Source: Escherichia coli
GTDB taxonomy: Bacteria; Pseudomonadota; Gammaproteobacteria; Enterobacterales; Enterobacteriaceae
DNA length: 64,000 nucleotides
Assembly: GCF_003334785.1 (NCBI RefSeq)
Contig: NZ_QOWV01000003.1
Reading direction: 5' to 3' (one strand)
The first letter of the stretch is position 1, and the number at the start of each line of letters is the position of its first letter. The translations under genes were made by a program, and so were the position numbers. Shown piece by piece: positions 67-36,572 of the stretch. Below the pieces are notes generated by a model. That model searched no databases. It saw nothing but the letters and a program-made list of their open reading frames with translations, and was not told where the DNA came from.

Positions 67-186
67 TGCCTGGCGGCAGTAGCGCGGTGGTCCCACCTGA
101 CCCCATGCCGAACTCAGAAGTGAAACGCCGTAGCGCCGATGGTAGTGTGGGGTCTCCCCATGCGAGAGTAGGGAACTGCCAGGCAT
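67..186 (+). rRNA. rrfE: 5S ribosomal RNA, last gene of an rrn operon (window begins in the 23S-5S spacer)
   Basis: 120-nt sequence TGCCTGGCGGCAGTAGCGCGGTGG...GGGAACTGCCAGGCAT matches E. coli 5S rRNA; operon copy assigned as rrnE from the downstream gene order yjaA-yjaB-metA. Confidence 0.93.
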
Positions 187-195
187 CAAATTAGA

Positions 196-228
196 AAAAC
201 CCCGGTCCATAAGGCCGGGGTTTTTTGC
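196..228 (+). terminator. rrn operon intrinsic terminator
   Basis: GC-rich hairpin CCCCGGTCC-ATAA-GGCCGGGG followed by TTTTTT immediately after 5S rRNA. Confidence 0.8.
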
Positions 229-260: not shown

Positions 261-644
261 ATGTCAGTTCTGTATATCCAAATTCGTCGTAATCAAATTA
301 CTGTTCGCGATCTTGAAAGCAAACGTGAAGTGTCAGGAGACGCTGCCTTCAGTAACCAGCGCCTGTTAATCGCCAATTTCTTTGTTGCAGAAAAAGTTCT
401 GCAAGATCTTGTTCTGCAACTCCACCCACGTTCAACCTGGCATTCTTTTTTGCCAGCAAAACGTATGGATATTGTTGTGAGCGCGCTGGAAATGAATGAG
501 GGCGGTTTGTCACAGGTTGAGGAACGCATTCTCCATGAAGTGGTCGCTGGGGCAACGTTAATGAAATATCGCCAGTTCCACATCCATGCGCAATCAGCGG
601 TACTCAGTGATAGTGCGGTCATGGCAATGCTTAAGCAGAAATAA
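261..644 (+). CDS. yjaA: uncharacterised stress-associated protein YjaA (127 aa)
   Basis: ORF 225..644 trimmed to internal ATG at 261 (product MSVLYIQIRRNQ...); recognised as E. coli YjaA. Confidence 0.9.
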   Translation: MSVLYIQIRRNQITVRDLESKREVSGDAAFSNQRLLIANFFVAEKVLQDLVLQLHPRSTWHSFLPAKRMDIVVSALEMNEGGLSQVEERILHEVVAGATLMKYRQFHIHAQSAVLSDSAVMAMLKQK

Positions 645-5446: not shown

Positions 5447-5695
5447 ACAACCGTTGCTGACTGTAGGCCGGATAAGGCGTTCACGCCGCATCCGGCAATC
5501 GGTGCACGATGCCTGATGCGACGCTTGCGCGTCTTATCATGCCTACAGCCGTTGCCGAACGTAGGCCGGATAAGGCATTTACGCCGCATCCGGCAATCGG
5601 TGCACGATGCCTGATGCGACGCTTGCGCGTCTTATCATGCCTACAACCGTTGCCGAACGTAGGCTGGATAAGGCGTTTACGCCGCATCCGGCAAT
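5447..5695. repeat. REP/BIME cluster: about 2.5 tandem copies of a ~100-bp unit in the aceA-aceK spacer
   Basis: Repeated units CCGTTGC(T/C)GA(C/A)(T/C)GTAGGCCGGATAAGGC(G/A)TT(C/T)ACGCCGCATCCGGCAATCGGTGCACGATGCCTGATGCGACGCTTGCGCGTCTTATCATGCCTACA read directly. Confidence 0.93.
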
Positions 5696-17478: not shown

Positions 17479-18351
17479 ATGCTGCCCGACTCATCAGTCC
17501 GTTTAAATAAATACATCAGCGAAAGCGGAATTTGCTCACGCCGCGAAGCGGATCGCTATATCGAGCAAGGCAATGTGTTCCTTAATGGCAAGCGAGCCAC
17601 CATTGGCGATCAGGTGAAACCCGGCGACGTTGTGAAAGTAAACGGTCAGTTGATTGAACCTCGGGAAGCCGAAGATTTGGTACTTATCGCCCTGAACAAG
17701 CCCGTTGGTATTGTAAGCACCACCGAAGATGGCGAGCGCGATAACATTGTCGATTTCGTTAACCACAGCAAACGCGTGTTCCCGATTGGCCGCCTGGATA
17801 AAGACTCCCAGGGGCTGATTTTCCTCACCAATCACGGCGATCTGGTGAATAAGATCCTGCGTGCTGGCAATGATCATGAGAAAGAGTATCTGGTGACGGT
17901 CGATAAACCGATTACCGAGGAGTTTATTCGCGGCATGAGTGCGGGGGTGCCAATCCTCGGGACAGTGACCAAAAAGTGCAAAGTTAAAAAAGAAGCGCCG
18001 TTTGTCTTCCGCATTACCCTGGTGCAGGGGCTGAACCGTCAGATCCGGCGCATGTGCGAGCATTTCGGCTATGAAGTGAAAAAGCTGGAACGCACGCGCA
18101 TCATGAACGTTAGCTTAAGCGGCATTCCGCTGGGGGAATGGCGCGATTTAACCGACGATGAGTTAATCGACCTCTTTAAGCTCATTGAAAATTCCTCTTC
18201 CGAGGTAAAACCTAAAGCGAAGGCCAAACCGAAAACAGCGGGCATCAAACGTCCAGTCGTTAAGATGGAAAAAACGGCGGAAAAAGGCGGTCGCCCGGCG
18301 TCCAACGGTAAGCGTTTTACCTCGCCGGGGCGTAAAAAGAAGGGGCGCTGA
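17479..18351 (+). CDS. rluF: 23S rRNA pseudouridine synthase RluF (290 aa)
   Basis: Full ORF with S4-like N-terminus and RsuA-family catalytic motif ([12 protein letters not shown]); recognised as RluF/YjbC. Confidence 0.95.
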
Positions 18352-18483
18352 TTAACGCCTCAGACTGATGAAAACGGCCCAAAAGTGCCCGGACAGTCCC
18401 CTCGCCCCTTCGGGAAAAGGGTTAGGGTGAGGGGAAAATTGTGTTCACACTGACGAGTGAAAATCTCAGGCGTTGATTGTGGA

Positions 18484-18756
18484 TTAGCGCCTGCCGCGCG
18501 TCGACGTATTTGCTGACCAGCTAAATGACGCTTCAGGATCCGGTTTATAAGCCTGCTTTTTCTTCAACTGGCGGGCTTTTTTCGCTTCAGCCTCACGCTC
18601 AACCATTAATTTATCGATGTAATCTTTCTTAATGCTGTTGGTTTCGGAGTTGGTCAATACGCGACCATGCGCAATCCGCGCCCGATCCAGCAGTGTTTTA
18701 AGTTCACGCTGCTCGCGTTCAGTCATCTCTTTTTGGGTAATACGGGGGAGTGCCAT
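18484..18756 (-). CDS. yjbD: uncharacterised protein YjbD (90 aa)
   Basis: Full ORF MALPRITQKEMTEREQRELKTLLDRARIAHGRVL... recognised as YjbD. Confidence 0.88.
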   Translation of the reverse strand: MALPRITQKEMTEREQRELKTLLDRARIAHGRVLTNSETNSIKKDYIDKLMVEREAEAKKARQLKKKQAYKPDPEASFSWSANTSTRGRR

Positions 18757-19008
18757 GATGGTGCCCTCAGTGAGCCAGAGAGTTCAGTGTACGGGAATTC
18801 GTTTGCGAGCAGAACTGATAATATTCATTTTGCCTTCTCTTAACTATTTATCTCTTTCGATAATTAATTAGAGATGCAGATAAAAAAATTAAAGGCAATT
18901 ATTCTCCGATAAAGACGCTGGTTAACAGAGTACAGGCTCGTTTATTGATGAGCATAGTGACAAGAAAATCAATACGGCCCGAAATATAGCTTCCAGGCCA
19001 TACAGTAT

Positions 19009-20358
19009 TTACTCAAACAAATTACTATGCAGTTTTTGCACCACCTGCTCGGCATCTTCGCCGGGCACCAGGAAGCACAGGTTATGGCTGGATGCGCCAT
19101 AACAAATCATGCGAATGTTGAACGGTTCCAGTACGCCGAATACCTCTTTGCCAACGCCGCAGGCTTTTGACAGGTCATTGCCAATCAACGCGACCAGCGC
19201 CAGACCTTCTTCCACCTCCACCCGACACAGTGCGGAAAGCTCCATCAGCAGAGATTGCGTCAGCAACGTATCGCCAGTGGAGGTTGAACCGGTGGTATCA
19301 AGGGTTAATGCCACGCTCACTTCTGACGTGGTGATTAAGTCTACCGAAATATTATGCCGCGCGAGGATGCCGAAAACTTCCGCGAGGAAACCGCGAGAAT
19401 GCAGCATATTCAGGCTGTGCAAAGTGAGCAGAGTCTGATTGCGACGAAGCGCCAGAGCGCGGAACAGCGGCGGATTTTCAGTTTTATTGCACACCATCGT
19501 ACCACCTGCGCGTGGGTCTTTGCTGGAGCCGACAAAGACCGGGATATCGCTGCGTACTGCGGGTAGCAACGTTGCCGGATGCAGTACTTTTGCACCAAAA
19601 GTTGCCATCTCTGCCGCTTCGGCAAACGCGATTTCATCAATGCGTTTTGCTGCGGAAACTACGCGTGGATCGGTGGTGTAGATGCCCGGGACGTCGGTCC
19701 AGATATCAACACGAGATGCGTGTAAAGCCTCCGCCAGCAAGGCTGCCGTATAATCGCTGCCTCCACGGCCAAGCGTCGTTGTACGACCTTTATTTTCGCT
19801 ACCGATAAATCCCTGGGTGATCACTAAGCCTTCATTGAGACGTGGGAGCAGCTGCAGCGCGGCCAGTTCCGCCAGCGCGGCTATATCTGGCTCTGCACGA
19901 CCAAATCGGTCGTTGGTACGCATCACTTTACGTACATCAAACCACTGTGCCTGAACATCGCGTTCGCGCAGGATCTCAACAAACAGCAGGGTCGACATCA
20001 GCTCGCCGTGGCTGACCAGCTCATCTGTCAGCGCCGGAGACGTTGCCAGCGCCGCCGCTTCTGCCAGAACAGTAATGTTCTCCAGCAGACGTTCAATCTC
20101 TTCACGGATAACGTTCGGGTAACGCAGACGTTCCAGAATGGCAAACTGGATGTTGCGGATAGCGTCGAGTTTTTCGAATCGCTCGCCAGGTTCCAGTCCT
20201 TCAGCTAAAGCGACCAGCAGATTAGTGATACCAGCAGAAGCCGAGAGGACAACTAAACGCACGTTGGCATCAGAAAGCACAATATCAGCGCTGCGGTTCA
20301 TGGCGTCAAAATCAGCTACGCTGGTACCGCCAAATTTGGAGACAACAATTTCAGACAT
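19009..20358 (-). CDS. lysC: lysine-sensitive aspartokinase III (449 aa)
   Basis: Full ORF MSEIVVSKFGGTSVADFDAMNRSADIVL... with C-terminal ACT domains; recognised as LysC. Confidence 0.97.
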   Translation of the reverse strand: MSEIVVSKFGGTSVADFDAMNRSADIVLSDANVRLVVLSASAGITNLLVALAEGLEPGERFEKLDAIRNIQFAILERLRYPNVIREEIERLLENITVLAEAAALATSPALTDELVSHGELMSTLLFVEILRERDVQAQWFDVRKVMRTNDRFGRAEPDIAALAELAALQLLPRLNEGLVITQGFIGSENKGRTTTLGRGGSDYTAALLAEALHASRVDIWTDVPGIYTTDPRVVSAAKRIDEIAFAEAAEMATFGAKVLHPATLLPAVRSDIPVFVGSSKDPRAGGTMVCNKTENPPLFRALALRRNQTLLTLHSLNMLHSRGFLAEVFGILARHNISVDLITTSEVSVALTLDTTGSTSTGDTLLTQSLLMELSALCRVEVEEGLALVALIGNDLSKACGVGKEVFGVLEPFNIRMICYGASSHNLCFLVPGEDAEQVVQKLHSNLFE

Positions 20359-20394
20359 AACTACCTCGTGTCAGGGGATCCATTTTCAGCCTTG

Positions 20395-20660
20395 GCACAA
20401 GGGAAGAGCGGAAGACGGGTGGGCGCAGAGCGATACTTCGCTACTATTTTCACCCAGAAGTGCTCCACCACTTGCGAAACGCCCGACTGCGAACGCTTCT
20501 GGTGACAACCCAGGGGATTCAGCCCCTGTAGCCGATGATGAACGTGGCCAGCCGTTCAATCACCTCGGCGATGCACCCCCTCAGGTGTTATCACAGGACT
20601 GGCTCCTCCAACACCGTTACTTGGGCAACGCGCCTCTTCTGGCCTGCGCTAGCGCAGGTA
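20395..20660 (-). promoter_or_regulatory. lysC leader containing the lysine riboswitch
   Basis: Long structured untranslated leader upstream of lysC; minus-strand reading contains ...AGAGGCGCGTTGCCCAAGTAACGGTGTTGGAGGAGCCAGTCCTGTGATAACACCTGAGGGGGTGCATCGCCGAGGTGATTGAACGGCTGGCCACG... which I recognise as the E. coli lysC lysine-sensing leader; bounds approximate. Confidence 0.8.
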
Positions 20661-20882
20661 GTACATTTATAAATAAAGGGTGAGCGGGGCGGTTGTCAAC
20701 GATGGGGTCATGCGGATTTTTCATCCACTCCTGGCGGTCAGTAGTTCAGCTAATAAATGCTTCACTGCGCTAAGGGTTTACACTCAACATTACGCTAACG
20801 GCACTAAAACCATCACATTTTTCTGTGACTGGCGCTACAATCTTCCAAAGTCACAATTCTCAAAATCAGAAGAGTATTGCTA

Positions 20883-22532
20883 ATGAAAAACATCAATCCA
20901 ACGCAGACCGCTGCCTGGCAGGCACTACAGAAACACTTCGATGAAATGAAAGACGTTACGATCGCCGATCTTTTTGCTAAAGACGGCGATCGTTTTTCTA
21001 AGTTCTCCGCAACCTTCGACGATCAGATGCTGGTGGATTACTCCAAAAACCGCATCACTGAAGAGACGCTGGCGAAATTACAGGATCTGGCGAAAGAGTG
21101 CGATCTGGCGGGCGCGATTAAGTCGATGTTCTCTGGCGAGAAGATCAACCGCACTGAAAACCGCGCCGTGCTGCACGTAGCGCTGCGTAACCGTAGCAAT
21201 ACCCCGATTTTGGTTGATGGCAAAGACGTAATGCCGGAAGTCAACGCGGTGCTGGAGAAGATGAAAACCTTCTCAGAAGCGATTATTTCCGGTGAGTGGA
21301 AAGGTTATACCGGCAAAGCAATCACTGACGTAGTGAACATCGGGATCGGCGGTTCTGACCTCGGCCCATACATGGTGACCGAAGCTCTGCGTCCGTACAA
21401 AAACCACCTGAACATGCACTTTGTTTCTAACGTCGATGGGACTCACATCGCGGAAGTGCTGAAAAAAGTAAACCCGGAAACCACGCTGTTCCTGGTAGCA
21501 TCTAAAACCTTCACCACTCAGGAAACTATGACCAACGCCCATAGCGCGCGTGACTGGTTCCTGAAAGCGGCAGGTGATGAAAAACACGTTGCAAAACACT
21601 TTGCGGCGCTTTCCACCAATGCCAAAGCCGTTGGCGAGTTTGGTATTGATACTGCCAACATGTTCGAGTTCTGGGACTGGGTTGGCGGCCGTTACTCTTT
21701 GTGGTCAGCGATTGGCCTGTCGATTGTTCTCTCCATCGGCTTTGATAACTTCGTTGAACTGCTTTCCGGCGCACACGCGATGGACAAGCATTTCTCCACC
21801 ACGCCTGCCGAGAAAAACCTGCCTGTACTGCTGGCGCTGATTGGCATCTGGTACAACAATTTCTTTGGTGCGGAAACTGAAGCGATTCTGCCGTATGACC
21901 AGTATATGCACCGTTTCGCGGCGTACTTCCAGCAGGGCAATATGGAGTCCAACGGTAAGTATGTTGACCGTAACGGTAACGTTGTGGATTACCAGACTGG
22001 CCCGATTATCTGGGGTGAACCAGGCACTAACGGTCAGCACGCGTTCTACCAGCTGATCCACCAGGGAACCAAAATGGTACCGTGCGATTTCATCGCTCCG
22101 GCTATCACCCATAACCCGCTCTCTGATCATCACCAGAAACTGCTGTCTAACTTCTTCGCCCAGACCGAAGCGCTGGCGTTTGGTAAATCCCGCGAAGTGG
22201 TTGAGCAGGAATATCGTGATCAGGGTAAAGATCCGGCAACGCTTGACTACGTGGTGCCGTTCAAAGTATTCGAAGGTAACCGCCCGACCAACTCCATCCT
22301 GCTGCGTGAAATCACTCCGTTCAGCCTAGGTGCGTTGATTGCGCTGTATGAGCACAAAATCTTTACTCAGGGCGTGATCCTGAACATCTTCACCTTCGAC
22401 CAGTGGGGCGTGGAACTGGGTAAACAGCTGGCGAACCGTATTCTGCCAGAGCTGAAAGATGATAAAGAAATCAGCAGCCACGATAGCTCGACCAATGGTC
22501 TGATTAACCGCTATAAAGCGTGGCGCGGTTAA
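20883..22532 (+). CDS. pgi: glucose-6-phosphate isomerase (549 aa)
   Basis: ORF 20877..22532 trimmed to ATG 20883; product [26 protein letters not shown]... recognised as Pgi. Confidence 0.97.
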
Positions 22533-22545
22533 TCATCGTCGATAT

Positions 22546-22626
22546 GTAGGCCGGATAAGGCGTTCACGCCGCATCCGGCAACCGATGCCTGATGCGACGC
22601 GGTCGCGTCTTATCAGGCCTACAGGT
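22546..22626. repeat. REP element downstream of pgi
   Basis: GTAGGCCGGATAAGGCGTTCACGCCGCATCCGGCA...GCCTGATGCGACGCGGTCGCGTCTTATCAGGCCTACAGG. Confidence 0.9.
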
Positions 22627-22695
22627 CGATGCCGATATGTACATCGTATTCGGCAATTAATACATAGCACGATTGATTAAATAACCTTAATAACA

Positions 22696-22723
22696 ATGCC
22701 GACGTTATGTCGGCATTTTTTTA
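22696..22723 (+). terminator. pgi intrinsic terminator
   Basis: Hairpin ATGCCGAC-GTTAT-GTCGGCAT followed by TTTTTTT. Confidence 0.85.
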
Positions 22724-23030
22724 TCAGATAAATCCCCTTGTCTGTGATTTAACGGAAATCATACCATGAGGTTAATCCTAAAATAGATTTTTAATCGTTG
22801 TTTATTTCGGAAAATACGCAGATTAATTGCTTTTGTTTTTATTTTAAGTTTATGATTTTTATTGTTATTTAAATATAAGTTGAAACTTATATTTGATATT
22901 CATTCCAATTATCCTAAAACGCCATCGCTAATTCCCCGCGCCGTAATTCGCATGCTTTAGTTGTGTATACTCGATCCCGCCCGAAATGTTTTTGGGTAAA
23001 TCTCCATTCATTCAATGAAGGGAAATTGTT

Positions 23031-23273
23031 ATGAAAAAAGTTCTGTATGGCATTTTTGCCATATCTGCGCTTGCGGCGACTTCTGCGTGGGCTGCACCTG
23101 TACAGGTGGGCGAAGCGGCAGGGTCGGCAGCAACGTCGGTTTCGGCGGGGAGTTCCTCCGCGACCAGCGTCAGCACCGTAAGCTCGGCGGTGGGTGTCGC
23201 GCTTGCGGCAACCGGTGGCGGTGATGGTTCTAATACCGGGACCACCACAACCACGACCACCAGTACCCAGTAA
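23031..23273 (+). CDS. yjbE: small secreted Ser/Thr/Gly-rich protein YjbE (80 aa), first gene of yjbEFGH
   Basis: Signal-peptide-like N-terminus [21 protein letters not shown] followed by low-complexity A/S/G/T-rich sequence ending [10 protein letters not shown]. Confidence 0.9.
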
Positions 23274-32217: not shown

Positions 32218-32345
32218 CAGGACGGATAAGGCTTTCACGCCTTATCCGACAACAACTGCCTGATGCGACGCTGACGCGTCTTATCAGGCCTACATACGTT
32301 TCGGTTTTGTAGGCCGGACAAGGCGTTCACGCCGCATCCGGCATT
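32218..32345. repeat. REP/BIME cluster in the malE-malF spacer
   Basis: Inverted REP units GACGGATAAGGCTTTCACGCCTTATCCGAC...GCCTGATGCGACGCTGACGCGTCTTATCAGGCCTACA...GTAGGCCGGACAAGGCGTTCACGCCGCATCCGGCA. Confidence 0.93.

Positions 32346-36448: not shown

Positions 36449-36572
<124 letters not shown>

Follow-up and report, generated by a model that had tools for sequence, protein, structure and literature searches.

The question raised by this locus is what kind of RNA is encoded between the promoter and the start codon of lysC, through which conformational states it would govern the gene, and how closely it corresponds to systems already described. The DNA examined, referred to throughout as the window, is the whole stretch of 64,000 nucleotides from Escherichia coli. 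A preliminary description made from the sequence had placed a lysine riboswitch leader upstream of lysC at 20395..20660 and had classed it as known biology; both statements are borne out below.

Identity and genomic setting of the leader

The proposed Rfam covariance-model scan of the minus strand was run and returned a significant match to RF00168 (Lysine) at 20450..20646, within the described interval, scoring 99.5 bits (gathering threshold 30), with E-values of 2.4e-26 in a 5 kb scan and 3.1e-25 in the whole-window scan. The match is not truncated, covering model positions 1-182 of 182, and the covariance-model scan of the entire 64 kb window returned no other riboswitch. The window sequence places standard pairs at 47 of the 53 base pairs of the model, and the RF00168 alignment contains all four conserved segments, namely AGAGG in J1/2, GCCGA after P2, UGUCAC before P5, and GUGGAG after P5. 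These junction segments show 0.92-0.97 identity across genera.

The leader sequence is 100% identical to that of E. coli genomes. A lysC leader was found in all 5426 of 5426 complete E. coli genomes, with at least 99% identity in 5421, and RefSeq E. coli genomes annotate a riboswitch at the same position, followed by lysC. One E. coli strain, EECO1006, carries a variant in which IS1 splits the leader between the aptamer and the platform. The element is almost certainly the E. coli lysC lysine riboswitch, which acts in cis as an OFF switch from within a 306-nt leader, and is the same object as that described by Caron et al. (2012, PNAS 109:E3444), Bastet et al. (2017, PMC5499598), and Ghosh et al. 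(2024, PMC10946432). It is published, RefSeq-annotated and ordinary biology, and nothing in its identification is new. That the window leader binds L-lysine may be taken from the lysine effects reported for this exact leader in vitro and in vivo (PMC10946432).

The leader, its promoter and its gene are arranged as follows:

20671..20699, minus strand: putative lysC sigma-70 promoter read from the sequence, with -35 TTGACA at 20699..20694, a 17-nt spacer, and -10 TTATTT at 20676..20671
20664, minus strand: transcription start (+1, G), derived from the numbering of PMC10946432; transcript position t corresponds to window position 20665 - t
20450..20646, minus strand: lysine riboswitch aptamer, +19..+215, a full RF00168 match and the RefSeq riboswitch
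20356..20358, minus strand: lysC AUG, +307..+309, the start of the open reading frame; G309 is a published NusG/Rho-dependent termination and pause position (PMC10946432)
19009..20358, minus strand: lysC coding sequence, 449 aa, lysine-sensitive aspartokinase III and the regulated gene, identified by its open reading frame, NF006570, and RefSeq
18972..19003, minus strand: terminator-like hairpin, a 13-pair stem followed by TGATTTTCTT, just past the lysC stop codon (consensus match only)

The minus-strand leader thus runs from the start site at 20664 to the AUG at 20358..20356, and its 306 nt agree with the length of roughly 300 nt given in the preliminary description. The published E. coli numbering (AUG 307-309, Site1 250-253, Rho stops at G349, U354-357, and A364) fits the window position for position, and the published bases G309 (the G of the AUG), G349, U354-357, and A364 all match the window bases at the corresponding positions (PMC10946432). 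With this numbering, the strand and approximate limits of the interval 20395..20660 hold, but it equals +5..+270 and omits the transcription start at 20664 as well as the half of the platform that carries the Shine-Dalgarno (SD) sequence and the AUG (20356..20370, with the SD at 20364..20367). The promoter hexamers were placed by eye relative to the start site implied by PMC10946432 and are best regarded as putative. The consensus promoter scan did not list this promoter; its -10 TTATTT lacks the A at position 2 that the scan rule demands. The promoter sequence is identical in E. albertii.

The lysC open reading frame scores 768.1 bits against the NF006570 equivalog, for which the cut-off is 455, and its AUG lies 91 nt downstream of the 3' end of the aptamer on the same strand. 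The gene order at the locus, pgi followed by lysC, yjbD, and rluF, is that of the published E. coli context. The hairpin and T-run at 18972..19003 mark the 3' end of the lysC unit and lie outside the switch.

Aptamer helices and their covariation

The description of the leader as highly structured is supported by the covariance-model match and by covariation, but not by folding energy: the minimum free energy (MFE) of the whole leader gives a z-score of only -1.68 against shuffles, which is unexceptional, and the evidence for structure therefore consists of the model match and covariation. Helices were assigned as follows:

20636..20642, minus strand: P1 5' strand, +23..+29 CCAGAAG, followed by the conserved J1/2 AGAGG; Rfam alignment, invariant in 20 of 20 Enterobacterales leaders
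20568..20631, minus strand: P2/P2a/P2b arm, +34..+97, with GCCAGUC at +62..+68 in the L2 loop; compensatory changes in 7 pairs (alignment helices 3 and 4)
20534..20564, minus strand: P3 arm, +101..+131, with GGCUGGC at +112..+118 in the L3 loop; compensatory changes in 8 of 11 pairs
20507..20533, minus strand: P4 arm, +132..+158; 99.5% of cells paired, one pair with compensatory changes
20465..20505, minus strand: P5 arm, +160..+200, including a lineage-specific 10-bp extension; Rfam alignment and covariation
20454..20460, minus strand: P1 3' strand, +205..+211 CUUCUGG, the switching strand, invariant in 20 leaders; predicted to pair with the P1 5' strand (OFF) or to join the anti-P1 helix (ON)

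Covariation was assessed in 20 Enterobacterales leaders, with slid pairings and 500 shuffles as controls. Across this set 91.7% of cells in the aptamer helices are paired, compared with 37-47% for the slid controls, and 20 aptamer pairs changed on both sides, a covariation score reached in 0 of 500 shuffles. P1 and the base of P5 are invariant in the 20 leaders and hence uninformative for covariation. The 10-bp extension of P5, absent from the Rfam consensus, pairs +166..175 with +180..189 and represents an 18-nt insertion relative to that consensus; 92.6% of its cells are paired, five of its ten pairs show compensatory changes, and none of the 500 shuffles reached its score.

A loop-loop (kissing) contact between L2 and L3 is a feature of the lysine riboswitch family, established by crystal structures and by mutagenesis from the Lafontaine laboratory. 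In the window, GCCAGUC of L2 and GGCUGGC of L3 can form seven contiguous pairs, a number equalled by 0.3% of shuffled loops. Complementarity of at least 4 bp is present in 12 of 14 distinct loop pairs whose sequences differ (for example ACCAG/CUGGU, UCCGU/GCGGA, and GCCGU/ACGGC). This measure considers sequence complementarity alone and is taken per sequence, the loops of individual relatives being too short for significance; it replaced column-wise counting, in which MAFFT had misaligned the loops of the Erwinia group.

Upstream of the aptamer, one further helix was present in every computed fold:

20643..20658, minus strand: 5' hairpin, +7..+22 CCUGCG-CUAG-CGCAGG, directly abutting P1

Compensatory changes occur in four of its six pairs across Enterobacterales and preserve the hairpin in most leaders of this order. 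E. albertii and Kosakonia carry a repeat-like, self-pairing insertion exactly at the junction between this hairpin and P1. The view that their leaders have a different 5' segment was rejected, as promoter and hairpin are kept and the insertion precedes P1. A joint reading, conceivable though rather unlikely, is that the 5' hairpin would be a functional module, either shielding the 5' end from 5'-end-dependent entry of RNase E or stacking on P1, and that the hairpin-P1 junction would be a tolerated insertion point, because the element in E. albertii and Kosakonia sits exactly there; on the same reading, the near-invariant platform sequences CGCUCUUCCCUUGUGCCAAGGCUGA and CCUGACACGAGGU may likewise reflect constraint beyond their roles in pairing, RNase E cleavage, and Rho termination.

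Expression platform and the published mechanism

Between the aptamer and the start codon, the following elements were delineated:

20426..20446, minus strand: linker hairpin, +219..+239, predicted in all folds; lowest alignment identity (0.39-0.55), with indels
20397..20421, minus strand: C/U-rich switch tract, +244..+268, 48% C and 12% G; predicted to supply the 3' strand of the ON-state anti-P1 (anti-sequester) helix, and published rut site and RNase E target when single-stranded (PMC10946432)
20412..20415, minus strand: RNase E Site1, +250..+253 UCUU, also part of the rut site; positions from PMC10946432, bases from the window
20396..20402, minus strand: 5' strand of the predicted SD-sequester helix, +263..+269 CCUUGUG, from folding with the aptamer enforced; identity 0.99
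20364..20370, minus strand: 3' strand of the predicted SD-sequester helix, +295..+301 CACGAGG, including the Shine-Dalgarno GAGG at +298..+301 (20367..20364); folding and conservation

The linker hairpin is probably a mere spacer. A weak terminator-like match on the plus strand at 20429..20442 is its antisense image.

In the proposed mechanism, the aptamer (+19..+215) would form a five-helix junction, P1-P5, with the L2-L3 contact, and binding of L-lysine would lock P1 (+23-29 / +205-211). Without lysine, the 3' strand of P5, GGAG of J5/1, and the 3' strand of P1 (+188..+215) would instead pair with the C/U-rich tract (+243..+270), and this anti-P1 helix would mask the tract and leave the SD free, so that lysC would be transcribed and translated. 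With lysine, P1 would retain the aptamer 3' side and release the tract, whose 3' end CCUUGUG would pair with CACGAGG, sequestering the SD and blocking translation initiation. The tract, when single-stranded, would be cleaved by RNase E and the degradosome (Site1 UCUU, +250-253), and the same single-stranded tract would act as the rut site at which Rho and NusG bring about termination, both at G309 of the start codon and deeper in the untranslated open reading frame.

Lysine binding, translational repression, RNase E cleavage, and Rho termination are reported from published experiments on the same sequence, and the folding and comparative analyses of the window agree with the published translation and decay mechanism. 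Control of lysC translation and mRNA decay by the riboswitch in response to lysine is credited to Caron et al. 2012 in PMC10946432 and PMC3997798, which summarise that work, and the same two papers give the ON/OFF model, SD sequestration in the OFF state, and RNase E sites for lysC. The rut site lies near +240, and lysine enhances Rho/NusG termination at G309, with further Rho stops at +349, +354-357, and +364, corresponding to window positions 20316, 20311..20308, and 20301 (PMC10946432). Deletion of Site1 (positions 250-253) raises RNA polymerase occupancy early in the open reading frame, and effects of rho-R66S on lysC are described (PMC10946432); the Rho termination score of lysC is 6.1 (PMC5499598). 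The earlier statement that the riboswitch controls translation and mRNA decay therefore stands, given the published mechanism for the exact RNA and the agreement of the folds, but it left out Rho-dependent termination, the third layer of control by this riboswitch (PMC5499598, PMC10946432).

Folding of the window leader contains both states. In the unconstrained MFE structure the anti-P1 helix (+190-214 / +244-268) forms and the aptamer P1 is absent, as expected of the ligand-free state; the duplex of +188..+215 with the C/U tract is predicted at -27.4 kcal/mol. With the aptamer fold enforced, the sequester helix (+263-269 / +295-301) has a probability of 0.41, competing for the SD region with a rival pairing to codons 4-6 at about 0.48, whereas in the unconstrained ensemble no base of the SD region has +263..+269 among its two most likely partners. 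Enforcing the aptamer lowers the unpaired probability of the SD from 0.54 in the unconstrained ensemble to 0.29. For the C/U tract the mean unpaired probability is 0.37 unconstrained and 0.49 with the aptamer enforced, a small predicted shift. The enforced aptamer fold lies about 20 kcal/mol above the free ensemble in the nearest-neighbour model, a figure that includes neither ligand nor tertiary contacts, so that the thermodynamic ON/OFF contrast is only qualitative.

Comparison across the 20 leaders shows 94% of cells paired in the anti-P1 helix, compared with 46-70% in slid controls, and 99.2% in the nearly invariant sequester helix, well above its slid controls. Within Enterobacterales the anti-P1 helix has a single compensatory pair and the sequester helix has none; as the platform helices are nearly invariant, there is essentially no covariation within the order. 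A three-part test over 70 leaders was therefore not column-based but made per sequence, with mononucleotide shuffles, phylogenetically related leaders, and start codons chosen by rule. In 18 of 20 Enterobacterales leaders and 41 of 50 others, the aptamer 3' side and the SD region both find their best partner in one and the same middle segment; the score for this shared segment exceeds that of joint shuffles (p <= 0.05) in 20 of the 20 and 32 of the 50, respectively. The sequence of the segment differs between lineages over the 70 leaders. The two platform helices, as modelled, are mutually exclusive because the six nucleotides +263..+268 are common to both, and as predicted structures they are kept across genera.

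The exact register of the ON-state helix is something we infer from the modelled folds. In the predicted ON fold an internal loop separates the two halves of the anti-P1 helix; the bases of Site1 fall within this loop and form no Watson-Crick pairs, whereas the published account describes Site1 as sequestered within a double-stranded region (PMC10946432). This is the only difference from the published E. coli lysC riboswitch, and it concerns the predicted fold; the sequences are the same. A different ON-state partner, in which CUCUUCC of the C/U tract would pair with the P1 5' strand and J1/2 (GAAGAGG, +20..+36) rather than with the aptamer 3' side, appears improbable. GAAGAG and CUCUUC are perfectly complementary, and the duplex +20-36 / +254-272 is predicted at -15.3 kcal/mol, but the duplex with the 3' side is far stronger (-27.4 kcal/mol) and appears in both the unconstrained MFE and the centroid structures. 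The aptamer 3' side is also adjacent to the tract and transcribed immediately before it; the partner of the middle segment in distant lineages is the GUGGAG/P1 3' region; and the figure legend in PMC10946432 places the ON state in "the region corresponding to the expression platform". Pairing of the tract with the aptamer 3' side is thus the preferred model of the ON state.

Alternative readings, known systems and biological meaning

A second alternative, very improbable here, is a Bacillus-type attenuator, in which an intrinsic terminator and antiterminator in the leader, and not SD sequestration, RNase E, or Rho, would regulate the gene. The Bacillus subtilis lysC L-box (LYS-element, RF00168) has the same aptamer family, ligand, aspartokinase target, and OFF polarity as the window element, the aptamer family being common to Firmicute lysC leaders and the window. 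Several Firmicute or KSB1 leaders carry a hairpin and T-run before the start codon, and the intrinsic terminator of Firmicute L-box leaders is visible in this form, for example, in leaders L013, L030, and L051. In contrast, the scan for a G+C-rich hairpin with a T-run detected neither an intrinsic terminator nor a terminator-like site in the window leader (minus strand, 20358-20664); nearby, such minus-strand sites occur only past the lysC stop codon and ahead of the promoter. The window platform is C/U-rich without a T-run and, as distinct from the Firmicute L-box, would combine SD sequestration with an exposed C/U tract for RNase E and Rho. In vitro, most transcripts run to full length irrespective of lysine, and only the addition of Rho changes this (PMC10946432).

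It is equally implausible, at the same very low level, that the leader has decayed and no longer senses lysine, with control by lysine exerted only through promoter DNA elements and feedback inhibition of the enzyme. Promoter-associated DNA elements do regulate lysC as well, as PMC10946432 states in citing Liao and Hseu 1998, but the aptamer match is full-length and lies 69 bits over threshold, and in sequence the leader does not differ from the E. coli one on which the experiments were done. Across genera the stems covary, yet P1, the junction nucleotides, and P4 scarcely vary or do not vary at all, a combination that points to purifying selection on the aptamer fold. Moreover, the riboswitch confers repression by lysine from the heterologous lacUV5 promoter (PMC10946432).

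Two open reading frames overlapping the leader, 20138..20683 (plus strand, 181 aa) and 20386..20559 (minus strand, 57 aa), exist mechanically, but a real coding or antisense element has a negligible likelihood and both were rejected as genes, since neither matches an NCBIfam family even at E <= 0.1, RefSeq annotates no gene at either, and substitutions across genera take the form of paired RNA-helix covariation, with linker and loop indels that are not multiples of three.

The lysine riboswitch identified here belongs to a broader set of E. coli regulators with a similar logic. In the TPP riboswitches thiM, thiB, and thiC and the FMN riboswitch ribB, as in lysC, ligand binding blocks the initiation of translation and, via Rho, reduces mRNA levels (PMC10946432, PMC5499598), although aptamers and ligands differ from those of lysC. 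In thiC and ribB, as in lysC, a C-rich rut site lies in the platform and access to it depends on the fold (PMC10946432). What the authors of that study consider distinctive of lysC is the direct exposure, by the fold, of RNase E sites within the riboswitch, termed nucleolytic repression, and the overlap of these sites with the rut site (PMC10946432).

For the scan of this window, the lysC riboswitch serves as a positive control; its discovery value is none, as it is a textbook element already annotated by the NCBI pipeline. LysC is the first enzyme of the lysine branch, and the leader is accordingly one layer in the control of lysC expression, with a practical relevance that is already known. 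The lysC riboswitch provides a compact case in which a single RNA fold gates translation initiation, RNase E decay, and Rho termination.

Identity and numbering of the lysC leader

A covariance-model scan of 18000..23000 with Rfam 15 places the lysine riboswitch aptamer (RF00168) at 20450..20646 on the minus strand, with a score of 99.5 bits (E = 2.4e-26) against a gathering score of 30, the untruncated match spanning all 182 model positions (1-182). At gathering thresholds, the whole 64 kb window returned the same match and no other riboswitch. All defining features of RF00168 that can be tested from sequence are present, lysine binding itself being known from the literature. The main features of the locus are as follows.

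Features of the lysC locus (window coordinates)
20699..20694, minus strand: putative -35 element of the lysC promoter, TTGACA, a perfect hexamer
20676..20671, minus strand: putative -10 element of the lysC promoter, TTATTT, 17 nt from the -35 element
20415..20412, minus strand: Site1, a published RNase E site (UCUU, +250-253 in the numbering of PMC10946432)
20358..19009, minus strand: lysC open reading frame, 449 aa, starting 91 nt downstream of the aptamer

The reading frame scores 768 bits (cut-off 455) with the NCBIfam equivalog model of lysine-sensitive aspartokinase 3, with pgi divergent upstream and yjbD and rluF downstream. E. coli chromosomes match a 461-nt leader query at 100% identity. 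It is present in 5426/5426 complete genomes of the species, 5421 of them with ≥99% identity, and the RefSeq annotation at that locus reads 'riboswitch' followed by lysC. The window is E. coli and the leader is that of lysC. We infer from the two hexamers the lysC promoter, which is absent from the consensus scan list because of that scan's rule for the -10 hexamer. Open reading frames overlapping the leader on either strand were rejected as genes, having neither a protein family match nor RefSeq annotation.

With +1 set at window 20664 (transcript position t = 20665 - window coordinate), the AUG falls at +307..309; together with four published positions that match the window bases (G309, G349, U354-357 and A364; PMC10946432), this gives a leader of 306 nt. 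The preliminary description, a lysine riboswitch upstream of lysC in a leader of about 300 nt, is borne out in identity by the covariance-model check proposed there and in length by the published numbering. Its interval, 20395..20660 (+5..+270), contains the aptamer match but omits the start site and the Shine-Dalgarno (SD)/AUG half of the expression platform. The element is already known: its sequence, numbering and genomic context are all those of the published lysine riboswitch of E. coli lysC.

Elsewhere in the window, the Rfam scan identified a 5S rRNA gene and five naRNA4 (RF02564) matches that exceed the gathering score, at 22549..22619 (plus strand), 5466..5543, 5564..5641, 32220..32290 and 36449..36519, each consisting of paired G+C-rich hairpins, which we take to be REP/BIME-type intergenic repeats. 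Just past the pgi stop codon is the 22549 copy, whose opposite strand scores too. STnc430 (RF02053) matches 22685..22834 on the minus strand with 79 bits (threshold 47), in the A+T-rich pgi-yjbE gap with a short hairpin at the end. At 23031..23273 (plus strand), an open reading frame encodes 80 aa, with an N-terminus resembling a signal sequence and a low-complexity body rich in Ser, Thr, Ala and Gly; at the matching E. coli locus RefSeq names it yjbE (exopolysaccharide production protein). Terminator-like matches in the region numbered 4, close to the 2.4 expected from shuffles; a weak one at 20429..20442 (plus strand) is the antisense image of a poorly conserved linker hairpin (+219..+239).

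Aptamer architecture and covariation

Placed on transcript coordinates, the Rfam alignment resolves the five aptamer helices, with 47 of the 53 model pairs being standard pairs in the window sequence and all four conserved junction motifs (AGAGG, GCCGA, UGUCAC and GUGGAG) present.

Aptamer helices (transcript positions)
+23-29 with +205-211, minus strand: P1
+34..+97, minus strand: P2 arm
+101..+131, minus strand: P3
+132..+158, minus strand: P4
+160..+200, minus strand: P5

Leaders of relatives were collected by one DNA-pattern scan of species-representative genomes, with the aptamer core tied to the lysC KFGGT motif, yielding 71 loci; the window and 19 Enterobacterales leaders (n=20) were aligned. 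In this alignment, 91.7% of cells in the aptamer and 5' hairpin are paired, compared with 37-47% in slid controls (partners displaced by 1-3 columns), and both-sided changes occur in 20 pairs, with a covariation score reached by 0/500 shuffles. Compensatory changes cluster in P2, P2b and P3, plus one P4 pair; P1 and the P5 base are invariant. The P5 loop carries an 18-nt insertion relative to the Rfam consensus, folding as a 10-bp extension of P5, and since 92.6% of its cells are paired and compensatory changes occur in 5/10 pairs, it is a real, lineage-specific helix. Contact between loops L2 and L3 is a feature of the lysine riboswitch family, seen in crystal structures. The window loops offer 7 contiguous complementary pairs (GCCAGUC/GGCUGGC), equalled by 0.3% of shuffled loops, and of 14 distinct loop pairs differing in sequence, 12 keep at least 4 bp of complementarity, which fits such a contact.

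Alternative helices of the expression platform

The C/U tract (+244..+268) contains 48% C and 12% G. P1 is absent from both the unconstrained minimum-energy fold and the centroid; there +244-268 pairs with +190-214, comprising the P5 3' strand, J5/1 (GGAG) and the P1 3' strand, as an anti-P1 duplex of -27.4 kcal/mol. This predicted fold would correspond to the published ON (lysine-free) state with its anti-P1/anti-sequestering stem. With the Rfam aptamer pairs enforced, CCUUGUG (+263-269) pairs with CACGAGG (+295-301, containing the SD GAGG) at a probability of 0.41, and the SD becomes less accessible, with a mean unpaired probability of 0.29 instead of 0.54. The anti-P1 and sequester helices are mutually exclusive because +263-268 is common to both.

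Across the 20 Enterobacterales leaders, 94% of anti-P1 cells (slid controls 46-70%) and 99.2% of sequester cells (slid controls 32-57%) are paired, with essentially no covariation countable because both strands are almost invariant. CGCTCTTCCCTTGTGCCAAGGCTGA (20382..20411, minus strand, +254..+283) and CCTGACACGAGGT (20362..20374, minus strand, +291..+303) are near-invariant from one Enterobacterales genus to another and rank among the best-conserved parts of the leader, above the P2 and P3 stems. This fits overlapping constraints from the SD, the rut site, RNase E cleavage sites and two alternative pairings.

An ON partner of the C/U tract formed instead by the P1 5' strand and J1/2 (GAAGAGG) is possible, although that duplex is much weaker (-15.3 versus -27.4 kcal/mol). 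A Bacillus-type intrinsic terminator platform is excluded, as the minus-strand scan of the leader found no terminator-like site and, in vitro in the absence of Rho, transcripts are predominantly full-length (PMC10946432). A decayed leader, no longer lysine-sensing, is likewise excluded by the 99.5-bit score, the selection pattern across genera and lysine regulation from a foreign promoter (PMC10946432).

In the literature, lysine binding favours P1 and the OFF (lysine-bound) state, in which the SD is sequestered and the platform RNase E sites, exposed only there, are cleaved (PMC10946432; PMC3997798). The rut site is the same C-rich region; when Rho and NusG are present, lysine raises termination at G309 from 31% to 56%, deletion of +250-253 increases polymerase occupancy early in the reading frame, and most of the response to lysine is lost in a rho-R66S mutant (PMC10946432). 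The Rho termination score of lysC by ChIP is 6.1 (PMC5499598). In our predicted ON fold, Site1 lies in an internal loop between the anti-P1 helix halves, whereas it is described as sequestered within a double-stranded region (PMC10946432), a discrepancy of detail. The control of translation and mRNA decay proposed at the outset thus agrees with the literature but lacked the Rho termination layer, and the 'highly structured' leader holds by model match and covariation, not by thermodynamics, its whole-leader folding energy being unremarkable (z = -1.68 versus dinucleotide shuffles). Firmicute L-box leaders share the aptamer but use an intrinsic terminator, in contrast to SD sequestration and an exposed RNase E/Rho tract in E. 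coli lysC; translation-Rho coupling is shared by lysC with the E. coli thiM, thiC and ribB riboswitches.

Variation of the leader among relatives

Directly adjoining P1, a perfect 16-nt palindrome, CCTGCGCTAGCGCAGG (20643..20658, minus strand, +7..+22), forms a 6-bp hairpin outside the paired region of the Rfam model. It is kept in most Enterobacterales leaders, with both-sided changes in 4/6 pairs, and may serve in 5'-end protection or stacking on P1. E. albertii, another Enterobacteriaceae genome, Kosakonia and Enterobacter EA-1 retain promoter and hairpin with a strongly self-pairing element inserted before P1, which the E. coli leader lacks.

Inserted element in lysC leader loci fetched from other genomes
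L002:2145..2231 (approximate; E. albertii), also L032, L004, L054, L061, L070 and L068: element between hairpin and P1

The element measures about 87 nt in E. albertii and more in Kosakonia, with inverted ends GTATTACC...GGTAATA; its Kosakonia core (GGGAGCTTACATCAGTAAGTGACCGGGG) presumably resembles the ERIC/IRU intergenic repeat. Among 5426 E. coli genomes, the leader match is split in strain EECO1006 alone (NZ_CP090319.1; L073:3322..4019), where an IS1 transposase gene sits immediately after the aptamer (about +213) and parts it from the platform and the gene. This natural insertion has probably uncoupled lysC from the riboswitch.

The Enterobacterales platform motifs occur in 0/52 leaders outside the order; counterparts of the platform pairing there include Shewanella GGCUCUUCGAACG/GUUCGGAGC and Pseudoalteromonas UUCUCCUUA/AAAGGAGAU. 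Each sequence was tested for overlap between the middle region's best duplexes with the aptamer 3' side and with the SD region. Overlapping middle segments were found in 18/20 Enterobacterales leaders and 41/50 others, with joint results better than mononucleotide shuffles (p <= 0.05) in 20/20 and 32/50, respectively; the window leader was equalled by 0/200 shuffles. Drawn from related sequences and a simple shuffle, this shared-segment pattern supports, as lineage-level covariation, the three-part switch.
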